In this document: one piece after another, positions 32,291 through 39,401 of the stretch | Layout: every line of letters starts with the position of its first letter | Numbering within the stretch: position 1 is the first letter of the stretch | Sequence record: LR597651 | Direction: 5' to 3' (one strand) | DNA: 47,678 nt | Origin: Escherichia phage Lambda_ev058 | Position numbers and translations under genes: made by a program | The notes under the pieces: generated by a model | Told to the model about the DNA's origin: nothing | What the model saw: only the letters and a program-made list of their open reading frames with translations | Database searches by the model: none

Positions 32291-32659
32291 TCAGGCGGCT
32301 TTGATAGTCATATCATCTGAATCAAATATTCCTGATGTATCGATATCGGTAATTCTTATTCCTTCGCTACCATCCATTGGAGGCCATCCTTCCTGACCAT
32401 TTCCATCATTCCAGTCGAACTCACACACAACACCATATGCATTTAAGTCGCTTGAAATTGCTATAAGCAGAGCATGTTGCGCCAGCATGATTAATACAGC
32501 ATTTAATACAGAGCCGTGTTTATTGAGTCGGTATTCAGAGTCTGACCAGAAATTATTAATCTGGTGAAGTTTTTCCTCTGTCATTACGTCATGGTCGATT
32601 TCAATTTCTATTGATGCTTTCCAGTCGTAATCAATGATGTATTTTTTGATGTTTGACAT
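32291..32659 (-). CDS. ea10: Ea10-like early protein
   Basis: 122-aa ORF at the lambda ea10-equivalent position and length. Confidence 0.55.
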   Translation of the reverse strand: MSNIKKYIIDYDWKASIEIEIDHDVMTEEKLHQINNFWSDSEYRLNKHGSVLNAVLIMLAQHALLIAISSDLNAYGVVCEFDWNDGNGQEGWPPMDGSEGIRITDIDTSGIFDSDDMTIKAA

Positions 32660-32919: not shown

Positions 32920-33501
32920 ATGAACAACTCATGGTGGCAGGAACTAATGCATTTTTTCCTGCAAGGAATGACACTTAAACAGTTGATTCATATGCTAATC
33001 ATCCTGATCATATTGATTATTGTTATGCCTGTAAGCGTAAAAGAATGGATAAACCTGCATAATCCAGAAATCCTTCCTCATTACTGGATGTATTACATCC
33101 TGTTGTTTTGCGTTAGCTATGTGCTTAACGGCGTTGTTAATTCCGCTTATCACGCTGTGACTGTAAGAATTGAGATATTCGCTGCTCAGAAGCGCAAATC
33201 TAAAGAAGAGAAATACGTGCAAGATTTGTTTGATTCGTTAACTCTTGGAGAAAGAGCGTATTTGGCATTCGCTGTAGCCGCTAATAACCAGCTAAAGACA
33301 GAAAAGGGAAGCCCTGAAGCAATCTCATTGCTCGAAAAAGGGCTTCTTATTCGGGTACCTTCTGCTACTGGATATCCTGAAATCGACCGTTTTGTTATCC
33401 CGGAACGCTATAGAAATGAGTGCTACATTAGGTTTGCTGGGAAGAAAGACAGTCTTATGGATGAACTTATCGCTCAGGATAAGCATGGCAAAAACAAGTA
33501 A
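32920..33501 (+). CDS. sieB: superinfection exclusion protein SieB-like membrane protein
   Basis: 193-aa ORF on the strand opposite the pL operon, with N-terminal transmembrane helices (LIHMLIILIILIIVMPV, YWMYYILLFCVSYVLNG); sequence recalled as SieB-like. Own upstream region with repeats. Confidence 0.55.
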   Translation: MNNSWWQELMHFFLQGMTLKQLIHMLIILIILIIVMPVSVKEWINLHNPEILPHYWMYYILLFCVSYVLNGVVNSAYHAVTVRIEIFAAQKRKSKEEKYVQDLFDSLTLGERAYLAFAVAANNQLKTEKGSPEAISLLEKGLLIRVPSATGYPEIDRFVIPERYRNECYIRFAGKKDSLMDELIAQDKHGKNK

Positions 33502-33517
33502 TTAGCAAATGAATTTA

Positions 33518-33829
33518 TCATCTCGCCGTCAGTTGTTTTGATTTCCGGTAGCCTGCCGCGTAAATAGCTACGTTTGGCAGGCAAACACTTCCACTGCATT
33601 CATCTACTTTCTTGCAGCGAAGGCTTCCGAGTGATATTGCTTTTTCAGAAAGGCTTAACCGCTTTCTCGGGTCTTCCTGAACAGGTTCCTCACTGTCTGT
33701 GCCGAAGATCGAATCGATGATGTTGCAGATGGAATCACGCTCGATGGCCAGCTTTCTGCGCCGCTCATGACGGCGAGTTTTGGCATTTCCTGCAAATGTT
33801 GATTTTCCGTACACGATTACCGTCATGAT
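33518..33829 (-). CDS. N: N-type transcription antiterminator (P22 gene 24-like, arginine-rich motif)
   Basis: 103-aa product from MTVIVYGKSTFAGNAKTRRHERRRKLAIERD..., with an N-terminal arginine-rich RNA-binding motif. First gene downstream of nutL. Confidence 0.75.
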   Translation of the reverse strand: MMTVIVYGKSTFAGNAKTRRHERRRKLAIERDSICNIIDSIFGTDSEEPVQEDPRKRLSLSEKAISLGSLRCKKVDECSGSVCLPNVAIYAAGYRKSKQLTAR

Positions 33830-33944
33830 GTTTTCCTCATGTGAAATGGCTTTGGTGGTGATGCGCCAGATGCTGATCTTCTGGTTGCTGTCGTTACTGC
33901 TGCAATTCACATCACCCCAAACCCATCTCGTTTGGTATCTGTTC

Positions 33945-33978
33945 GCGCTTTGTCAGCGCATCATCGAAGTTAAAGAGC
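33945..33978 (-). promoter_or_regulatory. nutL: nutL (boxA plus boxB)
   Basis: Direct, on the minus strand: boxA GCTCTTTAAC (33969-33978), then boxB hairpin GCGCTGACAAAGCGC (33945-33959), which is the P22-type boxB-left sequence as recalled. Confidence 0.75.
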
Positions 33979-34268
33979 CTGCCAATCTGTTCCGTTTGGC
34001 TGCCAGCGTCCTGCTGATGGCGATTATAATGAACCAATAGTTCGATATTATCAAGAACTATAAGTACGAATTGTTTGTGGTTCATTAACTTAATGAGATA
34101 TGTTTTTGATATGTAAAGGAATTTATTTTTGTAAAGATTGAAGATTGGTCAGTAGGAGAGAAAGAATTGTTTGCTGGCGTGTTAGTTCGTGGGTTAGCAC
34201 ATGTGCGGATGTTAAATAAGGTAGACGATCGTGAGGAAAAGAAAAACCGGCGCTGAGGCCGGGTATAA

Positions 34269-35168
34269 TTATTTGATTATTTCTTTTATAAAGACTTCTT
34301 TCGGTTGGTATTTTTTATCTGATGATTTGAGCTGGTACGTTATTGTTATATCAGCACGTACAGAAAATTTACCTGCAAAATCTGATGGGTTTACGTTGGG
34401 GCCAAGAACCATATTTACTCTTCGATCTATTAATCCAGGGATAACAGCAGCCCAACCTTTCTCTGGATTGTCGAGGTCTAATGCACGGATTTCAACATCA
34501 ACATCAAAATGATCCTGAGTATATGACTCTGGTGTGAAGACAACTTCAGTTGGGGCTTTTTTAATGGTTTCAGCGGGAATGGTCACTGTACCACCCCCTG
34601 TACCTATGACCATCGTAGATCCTTCGTCTGCCCTAGCTGGGGCAAGCGTCTTAATGGAACTTTTGGCAAGAGTCTTCTTATTGGTTACCGTGCTTTCTAT
34701 GATTGCTTGAAGACGGTCAGGTGAAATATTAGCCTCACCGGCACCAATATTGATGATTGTATTGTTATTTGCTTCAAAGTGGGAGGTGTTGCTTGGAGCC
34801 ATAGCCTTAGTTGCTAGAACTAAGCCATATCCAACCAGACCAATAACAACAGCACCAACGAGAGCGTTTCTCATTTTCCCATTTCCGATCTTTGCATGAG
34901 CGCCAGCAAGAAACTTGTCCATTTCTTCTTGGCTACCAAAGAGGAGTTTAATAACAATATCTTCATAAAGGCTTCCTGCTTCTAATCGCGCAACATGCAC
35001 CGATATATCAAGGATATTAGCCCCTGTCAGTTCCTGCAAAACACCTTCTGATTGTTTTGCGATGGCCTCCCACCCTTGAAGGGAGGTAATCACATCTTTG
35101 ATGCTTACAGGTTCTTTAGTTGAATAATATATGTTTTCGGTAAAGGTTAAAGATAATTCTTGGGACAT
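34269..35168 (-). CDS. hypothetical membrane protein in the position where lambda carries rexAB (candidate exclusion/abortive-infection gene)
   Basis: 299-aa ORF directly downstream of the repressor gene on the same strand; one strong hydrophobic helix (NALVGAVVIGLVGYGLVLATKAM); AT-rich relative to cI and N; no recognised homology. Confidence 0.6.
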   Translation of the reverse strand: MSQELSLTFTENIYYSTKEPVSIKDVITSLQGWEAIAKQSEGVLQELTGANILDISVHVARLEAGSLYEDIVIKLLFGSQEEMDKFLAGAHAKIGNGKMRNALVGAVVIGLVGYGLVLATKAMAPSNTSHFEANNNTIINIGAGEANISPDRLQAIIESTVTNKKTLAKSSIKTLAPARADEGSTMVIGTGGGTVTIPAETIKKAPTEVVFTPESYTQDHFDVDVEIRALDLDNPEKGWAAVIPGLIDRRVNMVLGPNVNPSDFAGKFSVRADITITYQLKSSDKKYQPKEVFIKEIIK

Positions 35169-35297
35169 CCGAGCCCTCGCTGTTTCTTTCGATTTGCTGT
35201 GTTAAGCTAATATTTTAATATCCATGTTTCTGTTTGCTTGCAGTGTGTTTCTCACCACCATCCAAACGTACTGGTTACTAGCTATGTGATGATGAAG

Positions 35298-36005
35298 TCA
35301 TGAACTTTTCAGCCATTCCCTGGCCTCGATGTCATCTAGGTGGCGAGATTGCTTCAGAATACCAGCTACATACTCCACCTTTGCTACTTGATGATAAGGC
35401 AACGTTATTGGCCTGTGGTCTTGGTTGATGCTTGTAAATTGGTATTCTCCGTCTCTGTCATAGCCAAGAACCTTGATCATGTTGTGCCCTTCAATGGTTC
35501 TGACAAACACCTCATCACCTGGGAATACTTTGGTGTTAGGCTCAATGAGTACATATTCTCCTGATTTTATTCTGGGCCACATGCTGTCTCCTTTTACACG
35601 AAGACCAAAGGCATCTGGATCATCGCTATAAATCTTGAGCCACCCATCGCGCTCTTCGGTCATCTCGATGGCACCATCAACACCAAGAATTGCCTCACCA
35701 ACCACGCGCACTAACCCTTTTTTTAATTTGCCAACAATTGAAAAAGTATCTTCATCATTCGCTCCATTTAACGAAGTGCCGTGCTGAAGCCAAACAACAT
35801 CAACGTTTAGAAATTTCGCAAGCGCATTCATTTTTTCCTGGCGTGGTAAAGACTCAGCATTAAACCATTTGCTAACGCCTTTGGACGAAAGAGAAAGGGC
35901 ACGGGCTATGGCCATTCCCCTACCATGTTCATCAAGACCAGCTTCTTTACAGGCTTGCGCTAGCCGCTGGGCGAATTCTTTGCGCACTTTTTCATTCTGA
36001 ACCAT
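35298..36005 (-). CDS. cI: CI-type repressor (HTH plus S24 LexA-like autopeptidase domain)
   Basis: 235-aa ORF with an N-terminal HTH (GMAIARALSLSSKGVSKWF) and a C-terminal GDSM serine motif with downstream Lys, as in lambda CI/LexA. Divergent from cro. Confidence 0.85.
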   Translation of the reverse strand: MVQNEKVRKEFAQRLAQACKEAGLDEHGRGMAIARALSLSSKGVSKWFNAESLPRQEKMNALAKFLNVDVVWLQHGTSLNGANDEDTFSIVGKLKKGLVRVVGEAILGVDGAIEMTEERDGWLKIYSDDPDAFGLRVKGDSMWPRIKSGEYVLIEPNTKVFPGDEVFVRTIEGHNMIKVLGYDRDGEYQFTSINQDHRPITLPYHQVAKVEYVAGILKQSRHLDDIEAREWLKSS

Positions 36006-36083
36006 GAGTACGATACTAAAGCACTTGCAAAAACTTTCAGTTCAACCATAATGCGTACTGAAAGTACGAAAAAGGACATTCCT
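36006..36083. promoter_or_regulatory. OR/pR-pRM divergent control region
   Basis: Direct: candidate pR -35 TTGCAA (36025-36030) and -10 CATAAT (36047-36052); inverted repeat AAACTTTCAGT / TACTGAAAGTA; repeated AGTACGA motif. Confidence 0.45.
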
Positions 36084-36311
36084 ATGCAAAATCTTGATGA
36101 GCCGATTAAAGGTGTCGGCATCCCTGAAGTTGCGAAGGCTTGTGGAGTTAGCGAAAGGGCTGTCTATAAGTGGCTCAAAAACGGCTTCCTCCCTAAGACT
36201 GAGTTTTTTGGGAAAACGAAATACGCATCAAAAATCGAAGAGATTTCTGGTGGCAAATATCAAGCAAGCGAAATGCTTGAAATAAGCAAAAAGAACCTTC
36301 TGGCAGCATAA
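36084..36311 (+). CDS. cro: Cro-type repressor
   Basis: 75-aa product from MQNLDEPIKGVGIPEVAKACGVSERAVYKWLKNG..., with an HTH; first rightward gene opposite cI. Confidence 0.75.
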   Translation: MQNLDEPIKGVGIPEVAKACGVSERAVYKWLKNGFLPKTEFFGKTKYASKIEEISGGKYQASEMLEISKKNLLAA

Positions 36312-36318
36312 GTAACAC

Positions 36319-36353
36319 CGCTCTTTATCAATCTGCACCGCCGACAACGCGGT
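36319..36353 (+). promoter_or_regulatory. nutR: nutR (boxA plus boxB)
   Basis: Direct: boxA CGCTCTTTA (36319-36327) and boxB hairpin ACCGCCGACAACGCGGT (36337-36353), the P22-type boxB-right sequence as recalled. Confidence 0.75.
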
Positions 36354-36417
36354 AACTAATTAAGAACTCATCGAAAGATGCGTATTAGTGATTATTTACC
36401 TATGGAAATAGTAAGAA

Positions 36418-36717
36418 ATGGAACAAACAAATTACAGCAAACTATCACAGCGCGACGTTGATCGCGCAGAAACAGATTTACTTATCAACCTGTCAACGCT
36501 TACTCAGCGCGGTCTGGCAAAGATGATTGGCTGTCATGAATCGAAGATAAGCAGAACAGACTGGAGGTTTATAGCTTCGGTCTTGTGTGCTTTTGGCATG
36601 GCATCAGACATCAGTCCGATTAGCAGAGCTTTTAAGTATGCGCTTGATGAAATCACCAATAAAAAACGCCCGGTGTGCAAGACCGAGCGTTCTGAACAAA
36701 TCCAGATGGAGTTCTGA
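36418..36717 (+). CDS. cII: CII-type transcriptional activator
   Basis: 99-aa ORF; C-terminal ...TNKKRPVCKTERSEQIQMEF matches the lambda CII C-terminus (..TNKKRPAATERSEQIQMEF) as recalled. Confidence 0.85.
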   Translation: MEQTNYSKLSQRDVDRAETDLLINLSTLTQRGLAKMIGCHESKISRTDWRFIASVLCAFGMASDISPISRAFKYALDEITNKKRPVCKTERSEQIQMEF

Positions 36718-36749
36718 GGTCATTACTGGATCTATCAACAGGAGTCATT

Positions 36750-37649
36750 ATGACAAATACAGCAAAAATACTCAACTTCGGCAGAGGTAACTTTGCCGGA
36801 CAGGAGCGTAATGTGGCAGATCTCGATGATGGTTACGCCAGACTATCAAATATGCTGCTTGAGGCTTATTCGGGCGCAGATCTGACCAAGCGACAGTTTA
36901 AAGTGCTGCTTGCCATTCTGCGTAAAACCTATGGGTGGAATAAACCAATGGACAGAATCACCGATTCTCAACTTAGCGAGATTACAAAGTTACCTGTCAA
37001 ACGGTGCAATGAAGCCAAGTTAGAACTCGTCAGAATGAATATTATCAAGCAGCAAGGCGGCATGTTTGGACCAAACAAAAACATCTCAGAATGGTGCATC
37101 CCTCAAAACGAGGGAAAATCCCCTAAAACGAGGGATAAAACATCCCTCAAATTGGGGGATTGCTATCCCTCAAAACAGGGGGACACAAAAGACACTATTA
37201 CAAAAGAAAAAAGAAAAGATTATTCGTCCGAGAATTCTGGCGAATCCTCTGACCAGCCAGAAAACGATCTTTCTGTGGTTAAACCGGATGCTGCAATTCA
37301 GAGCGGCAGTAAGTGGGGAACAGCAGAAGACCTGACCGCCGCAGAGTGGATGTTTGACATGGTGAAGACCATCGCGCCATCAGCCAGAAAACCGAATTTT
37401 GCTGGGTGGGCTAACGATATCCGCCTGATGCGTGAACGTGACGGACGTAACCACCGCGATATGTGTGTGCTTTTCCGCTGGGCCTGCCAGGACAACTTCT
37501 GGTCCGGTAACGTGCTGAGTCCGGCCAAACTCCGCGACAAGTGGACCCAGCTCGAAATCAACCGTAACAAGCAACAGGCTGGCGTGACAGCCGGAAAACC
37601 AAAACTCGACCTGACAAACACTGACTGGATTTACGGGGTGGATCTATGA
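36750..37649 (+). CDS. O: replication initiator O
   Basis: 299-aa ORF matching lambda O as recalled (MTNTAKILNFGRGNFAGQERNVADLDDGYARL...); contains the ori iterons. Confidence 0.95.
   Translation: MTNTAKILNFGRGNFAGQERNVADLDDGYARLSNMLLEAYSGADLTKRQFKVLLAILRKTYGWNKPMDRITDSQLSEITKLPVKRCNEAKLELVRMNIIKQQGGMFGPNKNISEWCIPQNEGKSPKTRDKTSLKLGDCYPSKQGDTKDTITKEKRKDYSSENSGESSDQPENDLSVVKPDAAIQSGSKWGTAEDLTAAEWMFDMVKTIAPSARKPNFAGWANDIRLMRERDGRNHRDMCVLFRWACQDNFWSGNVLSPAKLRDKWTQLEINRNKQQAGVTAGKPKLDLTNTDWIYGVDL
37097..37225. repeat. ori: ori-lambda: four O-binding iterons plus A/T-rich unwinding region
   Basis: Direct: four ~19-bp inverted-repeat iterons (ATCCCTCAAAACGAGGGA-type) at 37097-37185, followed by the A/T-rich tract AAAAGAAAAAAGAAAAGATTATT. 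Confidence 0.85.
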
Positions 37650-38690: not shown

Positions 38691-39401
38691 GTGCACAGAA
38701 AACCCCCAGCTAGGCTGGGGGTTCCGGAAAGCTTTCAGCTTTGAGCCAGTTATTAAAACCCCTTTTGATTTGTTAAAACACCTTGCGGTCTGGCAACTGC
38801 AAGTGTCAAACAAGAAATCAAAAGGGGGTCCCAATGGGGAACGAAAAGAGCTTAGCGCACACCCGATGGAACTGTAAATATCACATAGTTTTTGCGCCAA
38901 AATACCGAAGACAGGTGTTCTACAGAGAGAAGCGTAGAGCAATAGGCAGTATTTTGAGAAAGCTGTGTGAGTGGAAAAGCGTACGGATTCTGGAAGCTGA
39001 ATGCTGTGCAGATCATATCCATATGCTTGTGGAGATCCCGCCTAAAATGAGCGTATCCGGGTTTATGGGATATCTGAAAGGGAAAAGCAGTCTGATGCTT
39101 TACGAGCAGTTTGGTGATTTGAAATTCAAATACAGGAACAGGGAGTTCTGGTGCAGAGGGTACTACGTCGATACAGTGGGTAAGAACACGGCGAAGATAC
39201 AGGATTACATAAAGCACCAGCTTGAAGAGGATAAAATGGGAGAGCAGTTATCGATTCCCTATCCGGGCAGCCCGTTTACGGGCCGTAAGTAACGAAGTTG
39301 GATGCAAATGTCAGATCGTGTGCGCCTGTTAGGGCGCGGCTGGTAAGAGAGCCTTATAGGCGCATTTGAAAAACCTCCGGCTATGCCGGAGGATATTTAT
39401 T
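38691..39401 (+). mobile_element. IS200 insertion sequence (IS200/IS605 family)
   Basis: About 711 bp inserted in the ren-ninB spacer. Left-end stem-loop CCCCCAGC-TAG-GCTGGGGG (38702-38720), tnpA, and right-end hairpin CCTCCGG-CTATG-CCGGAGG (39374-39392). Boundaries inferred by comparison with the recalled lambda spacer; accurate to about 5 bp. Confidence 0.75.
38834..39292 (+). CDS. tnpA: IS200 transposase TnpA (Y1 HUH)
   Basis: 152-aa product from MGNEKSLAHTRWNCKYHIVFAPKYRRQ..., with the HxH motif (ADHIHML) and catalytic Tyr region; closely matches IS200 TnpA as recalled. Confidence 0.9.
   Translation: MGNEKSLAHTRWNCKYHIVFAPKYRRQVFYREKRRAIGSILRKLCEWKSVRILEAECCADHIHMLVEIPPKMSVSGFMGYLKGKSSLMLYEQFGDLKFKYRNREFWCRGYYVDTVGKNTAKIQDYIKHQLEEDKMGEQLSIPYPGSPFTGRK

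Follow-up and report, generated by a model that had tools for sequence, protein, structure and literature searches.

A single-gene cassette behind the cI repressor of Escherichia phage Lambda_ev058 encodes a predicted inner-membrane protein and is a candidate superinfection-exclusion gene

The interval between the cI repressor gene and the N gene is a mosaic hotspot that holds, among others, rexAB and bstA (PMC8585504). Here, we describe the occupant of this interval in Escherichia phage Lambda_ev058 (sequence record LR597651), whose 47,678 nucleotides are referred to as the window. It is an open reading frame (ORF) of 299 residues with an ATG start at 34269..35168 on the minus strand, present exactly as claimed in the original prediction, which had proposed it as a single-gene determinant of superinfection exclusion or abortive infection. 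The encoded protein, hereafter the target, corresponds to RefSeq WP_000076839.1 or a near-identical variant and to PHROG 4506. Escherichia phage 1H12 and the Lambda_ev phages (genus Jouyvirus) have essentially the same sequence as the window, and gp50 of 1H12, which is the target, is annotated as a 'hypothetical protein'.

All features of the slot lie on the minus strand. The cI gene (35298..36005; 235 residues with HTH_3 and Peptidase_S24 domains) is of the 933W immunity type, is 98.7% identical to the cI of 933W/EDL933-Stx, and is the presumed source of transcription for the target in lysogens. A spacer of 129 bp (35169..35297) separates it from the target gene and contains a GAGGG Shine-Dalgarno sequence at 35178-35174, 5 nt ahead of the ATG. 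An intrinsic terminator (34237..34262; −9.1 kcal/mol) begins 7 nt past the stop codon of the target and is composed of a CCGGC-loop-GCCGG hairpin followed by TTTTTCTTTT. The downstream boundary of the slot is formed by a pL-like promoter with nutL (33943..34054), in which TTGATA-17-CATTAT is found at 34054-34026, a boxA-like GCTCTTTAA at 33978-33970, and boxB GCGCTGACAAAGCGC at 33959-33945. We take boxA and boxB to be nut-site sequences of the P22 type, and the annotation of nutL/pL in P22 shows a matching arrangement, with boxA alone of the nut elements annotated there. The N-type antiterminator gene (33518..33826), the first gene of the pL operon, follows, so that the location of the target between cI and pL/nutL/N is as had been described. 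The target gene was also said to be more AT-rich than its two neighbors, and this holds: its GC content is 41.2% overall and 32.7% at third codon positions (GC3), as compared to 45.3% and 41.5% for cI and 48.9% and 48.5% for N (GC3 of 33% vs. 42% and 49% in round numbers), in a window of 49.9% GC.

A separate acquisition of the gene, suggested previously from its codon usage, is borne out by comparison with Stx2a phages. Homology to these phages runs over 35270-36500, the cI region, at 97.8% identity, stops at 35270, and restarts at 34135, continuing over 33609-34135 at 93.2%. The exchangeable cassette, as delimited relative to Stx2a phages with common flanking cI and pL/N sequences, thus comprises 34136..35269 on the minus strand. 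In the same slot the Stx2a phages have either DUF3024 plus an NYN-domain protein or DUF3024 plus a hypothetical protein and a Ser/Thr kinase. The former cassette is seen behind the same cI in locus L002 (5291-6637), and in locus L088 (3969-6046) the DUF3024 gene is followed by genes for a 153-residue hypothetical protein and the Ser/Thr kinase and by a small ORF. The DUF3024/NYN pair, likewise uncharacterised, appears to be a further exclusion candidate. The target itself is carried by only 10 of approximately 139 phage records with a cI of at least 95% identity, indicating that it is dispensable. Presence or absence between homologous phages, deviant base composition, and a terminator of its own are the features of a moron, and all three are found here. 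From these sequence comparisons, we can conclude that the target is a horizontally mobile single-gene cassette consisting of a ribosome-binding site, an ORF, and its own terminator. The first 30 bp of the cassette (35241-35270, minus strand; TACGTTTGGATGGTGGTGAGAAACACACTG) resemble the region at the 3′ end of another repressor gene, that of locus L024, and since the Stx2a homology ends at the same place, this likeness suggests that the cassette moved together with a scrap of an earlier neighbor.

The spacer provides some information on how the target could be expressed. A scan of it revealed neither a terminator-like site nor a promoter with at least 9 of 12 matches, and among close variants the upstream conservation ends approximately 45 bp from the ATG and includes no conserved promoter. 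Taken together, these findings favor read-through from the repressor promoter rather than transcription from a promoter of the target's own, and we therefore infer that target and cI would be co-transcribed in lysogens. At the other end, a terminator-like hairpin with a T-run follows the gene in 21 of 38 homologous loci.

The target is a real gene rather than a chance ORF, as can be deduced from the size and the evolution of its family. Homologues form 56 clusters at 90% identity, reaching down to 29% identity, each of approximately 300 residues and named 'hypothetical', and a profile search of 1.84 billion representatives found 662 clusters (at 50% identity) with E ≤ 1e-3, 284 of them with E ≤ 1e-30. 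Among the 150 clusters listed, nearly all have approximately 300 residues and a full-length match in one stretch, and the shorter ones resemble fragments. The ratio of non-synonymous to synonymous substitutions (dN/dS) against close homologues is 0.019-0.10, indicating that, as judged by sequence divergence, the target is under strong purifying selection. The exact protein occurs on at least 1000 contigs, and the cassette is found at ≥99% identity in approximately 149 of 5426 complete E. coli genomes (~2.8%), including a derivative of the enteropathogenic E. coli (EPEC) strain E2348/69. Some natural copies may be inactivated, as suggested by an insertion sequence (IS), IS1, inside the cassette of E. 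coli H45 (NZ_CP090319.1) and by the EPEC E2348/69 derivative (NZ_LT903847.1; L013, 3634-4404), where a copy of 99.5% DNA identity has an annotated coding sequence of only 771 nt. Beyond Enterobacterales, the hosts include many Pseudomonas as well as Vibrio, Methylomonas, Zoogloea, Accumulibacter, Nitrosomonas, Pandoraea, an Alcaligenaceae strain, and metagenome-assembled genomes (MAGs) of a Desulfuromonadales bacterium and of Rhodopirellula, a Planctomycete. Every identified host is a diderm.

The original prediction held that the protein resembles nothing recognizable, and this is true of curated families and defence models but not of phage protein families. PHROGs is the sole library that recognizes the target, with phrog_4506 matched at E 1e-170 (residues 1-299 on profile positions 1-300 of 300) and annotated as of unknown function; likewise, the product of WP_000076839.1 (299 residues, strain A1_136) is given as 'hypothetical protein'. 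A Pfam scan of the target gave only sub-threshold matches, the best being DUF1206 at E 0.007, and weak matches to Bromo_TP_like and AsnC were seen in a few family members. No match to the target was found in NCBIfam, none of the 5027 defence-protein models of PADLOC-DB 2.0.0 matched it at E ≤ 1, and a profile search of the sequences in the Protein Data Bank (PDB) returned none below E 0.4. A full-text literature search found no mention of WP_000076839, A0A234Z8H0, phrog_4506, or YP_009909541, and the target accessions are not among the entries in the DefensePredictor supplements.

A structural model was obtained with AlphaFold2 from 42 homologues and is confident (mean predicted local distance difference test score 87.7; predicted template-modelling score 0.71). 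Residues 6-94 adopt a beta-alpha-beta-beta-alpha arrangement within an N-terminal alpha/beta domain of approximately residues 1-95, a helix at residues 101-123 coincides with the hydrophobic segment, residues 125-179 are helical, and residues 186-297 form a beta-rich C-terminus, whose fold class in the model would be that of a generic small beta-barrel and nothing more specific. The single strongly hydrophobic helix that had been claimed is evident in the Kyte-Doolittle profile (peak 2.24, centered on residue 111) and stands at the same position across 186 family members, whereas the description of the C-terminal domain as rich in Thr, Gly, and Ile applies only mildly (T 9%, I 10%, G 6%). Lys and Arg are more frequent in the 15 residues before the helix than in the 15 after it (means of 3.15 and 1.13; more before in 159 of 186 members), and by the positive-inside rule this bias predicts an N-in/C-out orientation. 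The topology prediction proposed earlier as a check has hence yielded a protein with one transmembrane helix, in which the N-terminal domain is predicted to be cytoplasmic and approximately 175 residues to be periplasmic. No signal peptide is present in the target. The best-conserved segment is the juxtamembrane ANNNTIINIGAG (residues 133-144), and the most variable one is residues 185-214. Residues counted as invariant in the target are G65/S66, R100, N134-N136, G142-G144, R228, D233, and W239. In a very divergent alignment, the invariant or nearly invariant positions are the GS(L) motif of the N-terminal domain, P206, and the IRAxDxDxxxxGWA loop at residues 227-240, which reads IRAxDLDxxxxGWA in the target. 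Foldseek searches of the PDB gave TM-scores of ~0.2 or less, to M16-peptidase-like folds, with no specific relative; the profile and structure searches that had been called for thus provided neither a confident homology to a known family nor a specific structural relative.

The placement of the homologues behind prophage repressors is the most informative result of the analysis. The loci examined comprise 51 viral and 21 genomic ones, the contigs of six homologue clusters, and two Pseudomonas phage records; neighboring genes in the fetched loci were called by a crude longest-ORF script, and the locus counts are approximate, for several IMG/VR and GTDB loci duplicate one another. Of 38 diverse viral loci, 17 have a Peptidase_S24 match in the gene immediately upstream, and HTH_3 is likewise matched there in 17. 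By per-locus searches with hidden Markov models, a CI-type repressor on the same strand lies no more than 1.8 kb upstream in 38 of 66 loci (~31 of 59 when obvious duplicates are removed), and no more than 205 bp upstream in 27 loci (~22 non-redundant), which include Pectobacterium and the Desulfuromonadales and Rhodopirellula MAGs (33-74% identity). In the Planctomycete and Desulfuromonadales loci, whose homologues are 33-35% identical to the query, the repressor and the homologue are 32 bp and 37 bp apart, respectively. Pseudomonas phages U9 and D14C have the homologue behind the repressor as well, separated from it by one or two small genes. Moreover, target proteins of 92-100% identity are found behind repressors that are only 23-39% identical or have no detectable similarity, indicating repeated capture at the slot and selection for the position rather than for a particular repressor partner.

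This last observation bears on the possibility that the target is a membrane-anchored modulator of the lysis-lysogeny switch, which would couple envelope signals to repressor activity or prophage induction. The order of a cytoplasmic domain of ~100 residues, a transmembrane segment near residue 100, and a periplasmic sensor would be reminiscent of RseA-like anti-sigma factors, and the operon-like linkage to helix-turn-helix/S24 repressors across phyla would suit such a role. However, a modulator of this kind is hard to reconcile with the pairing of near-identical proteins with unrelated repressors, with the roughly half of the loci that have no nearby repressor, some of whose copies are in late or structural regions or in satellites, or with the lack of a conserved sigma factor or other partner and of any anti-sigma domain similarity in Pfam; we consider it very improbable. 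The anti-sigma idea in particular was dropped, since Sigma70_r4_2-type matches occurred in only 2 of 38 downstream neighbors and in none of ten same-strand neighbors scanned individually.

The copies found elsewhere are likewise in recognised accessory slots. They lie in the interval from the Q antiterminator gene to the lysis genes of Edwardsiella, on the strand opposite to the late genes; directly upstream of a holin gene; after an Rz-like DUF2514 gene; after the P4-like or DUF3987-type primases of satellites and islands; and, in a Mu-like phage, immediately upstream of the Mu-type protease near head-morphogenesis genes. In Mu-like Pseudomonas phages, the slot before the Mu-type protease is where anti-CRISPR operons are located (PMC3993853). 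No conserved downstream partner gene was detected among the homologous loci. Adjacency to head-morphogenesis or lysis genes, together with the UniRef name 'Baseplate protein J-like' of one homologue, could be read as a sign of a virion-morphogenesis or lysis protein (structural, spanin-like, or holin-like) that is near cI only by chance in this phage. Yet the lambdoid copies are in the immunity region behind the repressor and end in their own terminator, the Mu-like position is a known accessory slot, the Edwardsiella copy is opposed to the late genes, and the dispensability described above also speaks against this role, which is highly improbable. As for the name, no member matches Baseplate_J or structural or lysis families of Pfam, even at E ≤ 1, and it was set aside.

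Another explanation is that the target is a factor of lysogenic conversion or host fitness unrelated to phages, that is, an envelope protein which, like lambda Bor or Lom, would alter how well the bacterium tolerates stress, colonises, or withstands host factors. It accords with the moron architecture and with the occurrence in moron slots including the sites of bor- and stx-type genes, with the predicted envelope location, and with the presence in ~2.8% of complete E. coli genomes, the EPEC derivative among them. A niche-specific benefit is nevertheless not suggested by hosts ranging from gut Enterobacterales to nitrifiers, Zoogloea/Accumulibacter, and a marine Planctomycete, and the gene is associated most strongly with the repressor slot, a known site of exclusion genes. 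We therefore regard this explanation as unlikely.

Among 122 neighboring proteins, ~7 match PADLOC defence or candidate models, which amounts to weak guilt by association. In two related viral contigs (L058, 1917-3914; L065, 1916-3912), the homologue is directly preceded by genes for an HSDR_N protein of 385 residues and a Hypoth_Ymh protein of 263 residues, the Pfam assignments having been made on L058 alone, and the arrangement looks like a small defence-type cluster.

Several other features of the window were recorded in the course of the analysis. A SieB superinfection-exclusion gene (32920-33501, plus strand; PF14163, E 3.2e-25), separate from the target, lies divergently just past N, and a DUF2528 gene (32291-32659, minus strand; E 2e-47) in the pL operon has a GC content of 38.5%, low like that of the target, and may be another accessory gene. 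The ORF at 33780-34040 on the plus strand, listed as 'hypothetical protein' FIG00644188 in 1H12 and in RefSeq E. coli entries, is antisense to pL, nutL, and the start of N and is probably an annotation artefact. Between ren-like and ninB-like genes, an ORF for an IS200-like Y1 transposase is found at 38783-39292 on the plus strand (PF01797, E 5e-38). The annotation of 1H12 has no gene at this site and the window is ~1 kb longer than 1H12, so that the ORF looks like an IS insertion particular to this phage genome. An Rfam scan of 33000-37000 detected no known RNA.

Dispensability, AT-richness, a bounding terminator, and repeated landing in the cI-N hotspot are best explained if the target is a lysogen-expressed accessory gene, and on these grounds it very probably is one. 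Few promoters of a prophage are as active as that of the repressor (PMC8585504). In a lysogen, the target would be read through from the repressor maintenance promoter, like lambda rexAB and BTP1 bstA, and transcription would halt at its own terminator, ahead of pL. The product would be a bitopic inner-membrane protein with a cytoplasmic alpha/beta domain of ~95 residues, one transmembrane helix, and ~175 periplasmic residues, the latter comprising the highly conserved juxtamembrane segment and the C-terminal small beta-barrel. Exclusion of phages or abortion of infection, as proposed in the original prediction, is a candidate function of such a protein in the lysogen. Because most of its mass and its best-conserved motif are on the predicted periplasmic side, we favor envelope-level superinfection exclusion, for which we see a little less than an even chance: the lysogen would be shielded from superinfecting phages at the envelope and, as with P22 SieA, the step most probably disturbed would be the delivery of the genome across the inner membrane.

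A number of findings weigh against exclusion at the envelope. No sequence or fold similarity to known exclusion or defence proteins was found with PADLOC, with Foldseek against the PDB, or with hhalign against RexA, RexB, and SieA. The known entry blockers are smaller and have other topologies (SieA: ~163 residues with three transmembrane segments), and it is not obvious why a periplasmic blocker should need a conserved cytoplasmic domain of 95 residues. A protein that recognised a single phage protein or receptor would not be expected in so many phyla, known defence genes are near the target only occasionally, and the phage in the window already has SieB.

Some of the same features could be accommodated if the target were an abortive-infection effector in one polypeptide, functionally like RexA and RexB fused. 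Here, a cue of infection would be sensed by the N-terminal domain in the cytoplasm, and the membrane would then be permeabilised or depolarised through oligomerisation of the transmembrane helix, which has small-xxx-small motifs, and of the Asn-rich juxtamembrane helix. The slot is common to rexAB, Stk, and bstA, all of which are systems of the abortive-infection type; a conserved cytoplasmic domain is joined to a transmembrane helix; the polar juxtamembrane ANNNTIINIGAG is the best-conserved segment; and a broad taxonomic spread suits target-independent killing. The protein nonetheless has a single hydrophobic helix, with a mean hydropathy of ~0 in the next one, and the NNNxIIN motif is confined to 61 of 186 family members. 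The scheme would give no clear role to the large, conserved periplasmic domain, no similarity to RexA or RexB was detected, and no self-immunity element is obvious. In our estimation an effector of this type is rather unlikely.

An exclusion-type cassette in an immunity region is a well-known kind of element. The family described here is unnamed, has no structural relative that the searches could find, and is missing from the defence catalogues queried. It is possible, if doubtful, that the target is the founding and experimentally tractable member of a multi-phylum family of single-protein anti-phage membrane proteins, co-transcribed with the repressor, with no recognisable fold relative and with a new mechanism, for example that of an envelope sensor-effector in which a periplasmic beta-barrel would be linked to a cytoplasmic domain by one transmembrane helix. 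If the target excludes phages, it would add a widespread single-gene defence at the level of the envelope (662 clusters; ~2.8% of complete E. coli genomes) and would be the second case, after BstA, of a defence gene defined by its placement behind a prophage repressor. That near-identical cassettes have been captured time and again behind unrelated repressors also informs how the cI-N hotspot swaps its cargo. A simple test system is at hand, since relatives of this lambda-like coliphage are available as sequenced isolates and the cassettes of its immunity region have been exchanged in nature. The repressor-linked synteny across phyla is better evidence than was available to the original prediction and makes the target a testable lead and a candidate defence gene.

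Compared with lambda RexA and RexB, the target is found in the same cI-to-pL slot, on the cI strand, ending before pL, and both cassettes include a membrane component; RexAB is expressed in lysogens (PMC8585504). However, rexAB consists of two genes, for a polytopic membrane protein of 144 residues (RexB) and a cytoplasmic protein of 279 residues (RexA), whereas the cassette of the target has a single ORF with one hydrophobic helix and no conserved partner, and hhalign of the family profile gave probabilities of 0.1% against lambda RexA and 0.8% against RexB. A closer parallel in gene arrangement is BstA of Salmonella phage BTP1 and its relatives, a single gene of ~300 residues that follows the prophage repressor, presumably sharing its promoter, has its own Rho-independent terminator, and keeps this synteny across diverse Gram-negative bacteria (PMC8585504). 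The target is similarly conserved downstream of prophage repressors and has its own terminator. BstA has a KilA-N-type domain, and the target matches neither KilA-N in Pfam nor any model in PADLOC 2.0.0, which is assumed to hold one for BstA. The two also differ in that BstA has the DNA self-immunity element aba and the target has a transmembrane helix; within the cell, BstA is found where phage DNA replicates (PMC8585504).

The Stk cassette of 933W/Stx2a phages and the DUF3024 + NYN cassette occupy exactly the same slot behind a cI of at least 97.8% identity, so that these two and the target can be regarded as alternative alleles of one hotspot. They differ from it in being multi-gene cassettes that encode unrelated proteins, namely a Ser/Thr kinase and an NYN nuclease-like protein with DUF3024. 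Stk reportedly excludes HK97, according to Friedman et al. 2011.

By its predicted location, the target resembles the blockers of DNA entry. Small single-gene entry blockers that are expressed in lysogens and anchored to the membrane or to lipid, with the functional part outside the cytoplasm, include lactococcal Sie2009, Ltp of S. thermophilus, and gp15 of HK97; the genes for the first two lie beside the repressor in the lysogeny module. All three are much smaller than the target and have no cytoplasmic domain. P22 SieA is a prophage-expressed inner-membrane protein of ~163 residues with three predicted transmembrane segments, which by itself prevents DNA from being delivered across the inner membrane (PMC10883804). 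SieA is encoded elsewhere in its phage and has its own promoter, and the target has a single transmembrane segment; hhalign of the family profile against it gave a probability of 0.5%, and the Pfam model of SieB (PF14163) does not match the target. SNIPE of E. coli, a membrane-bound nuclease, is a single-protein defence that is constitutively at the membrane and acts where the genome is injected (PMC13190303). Its likeness to the target, which lies in the predicted membrane location, is looser than that of SieA-type blockers, and no nuclease or other enzymatic domain is recognisable in the target. Collectively, the target is like rexAB, bstA, and 933W stk by position and cassette logic and like SieA-type blockers by predicted location, and it is a member of none of these groups.

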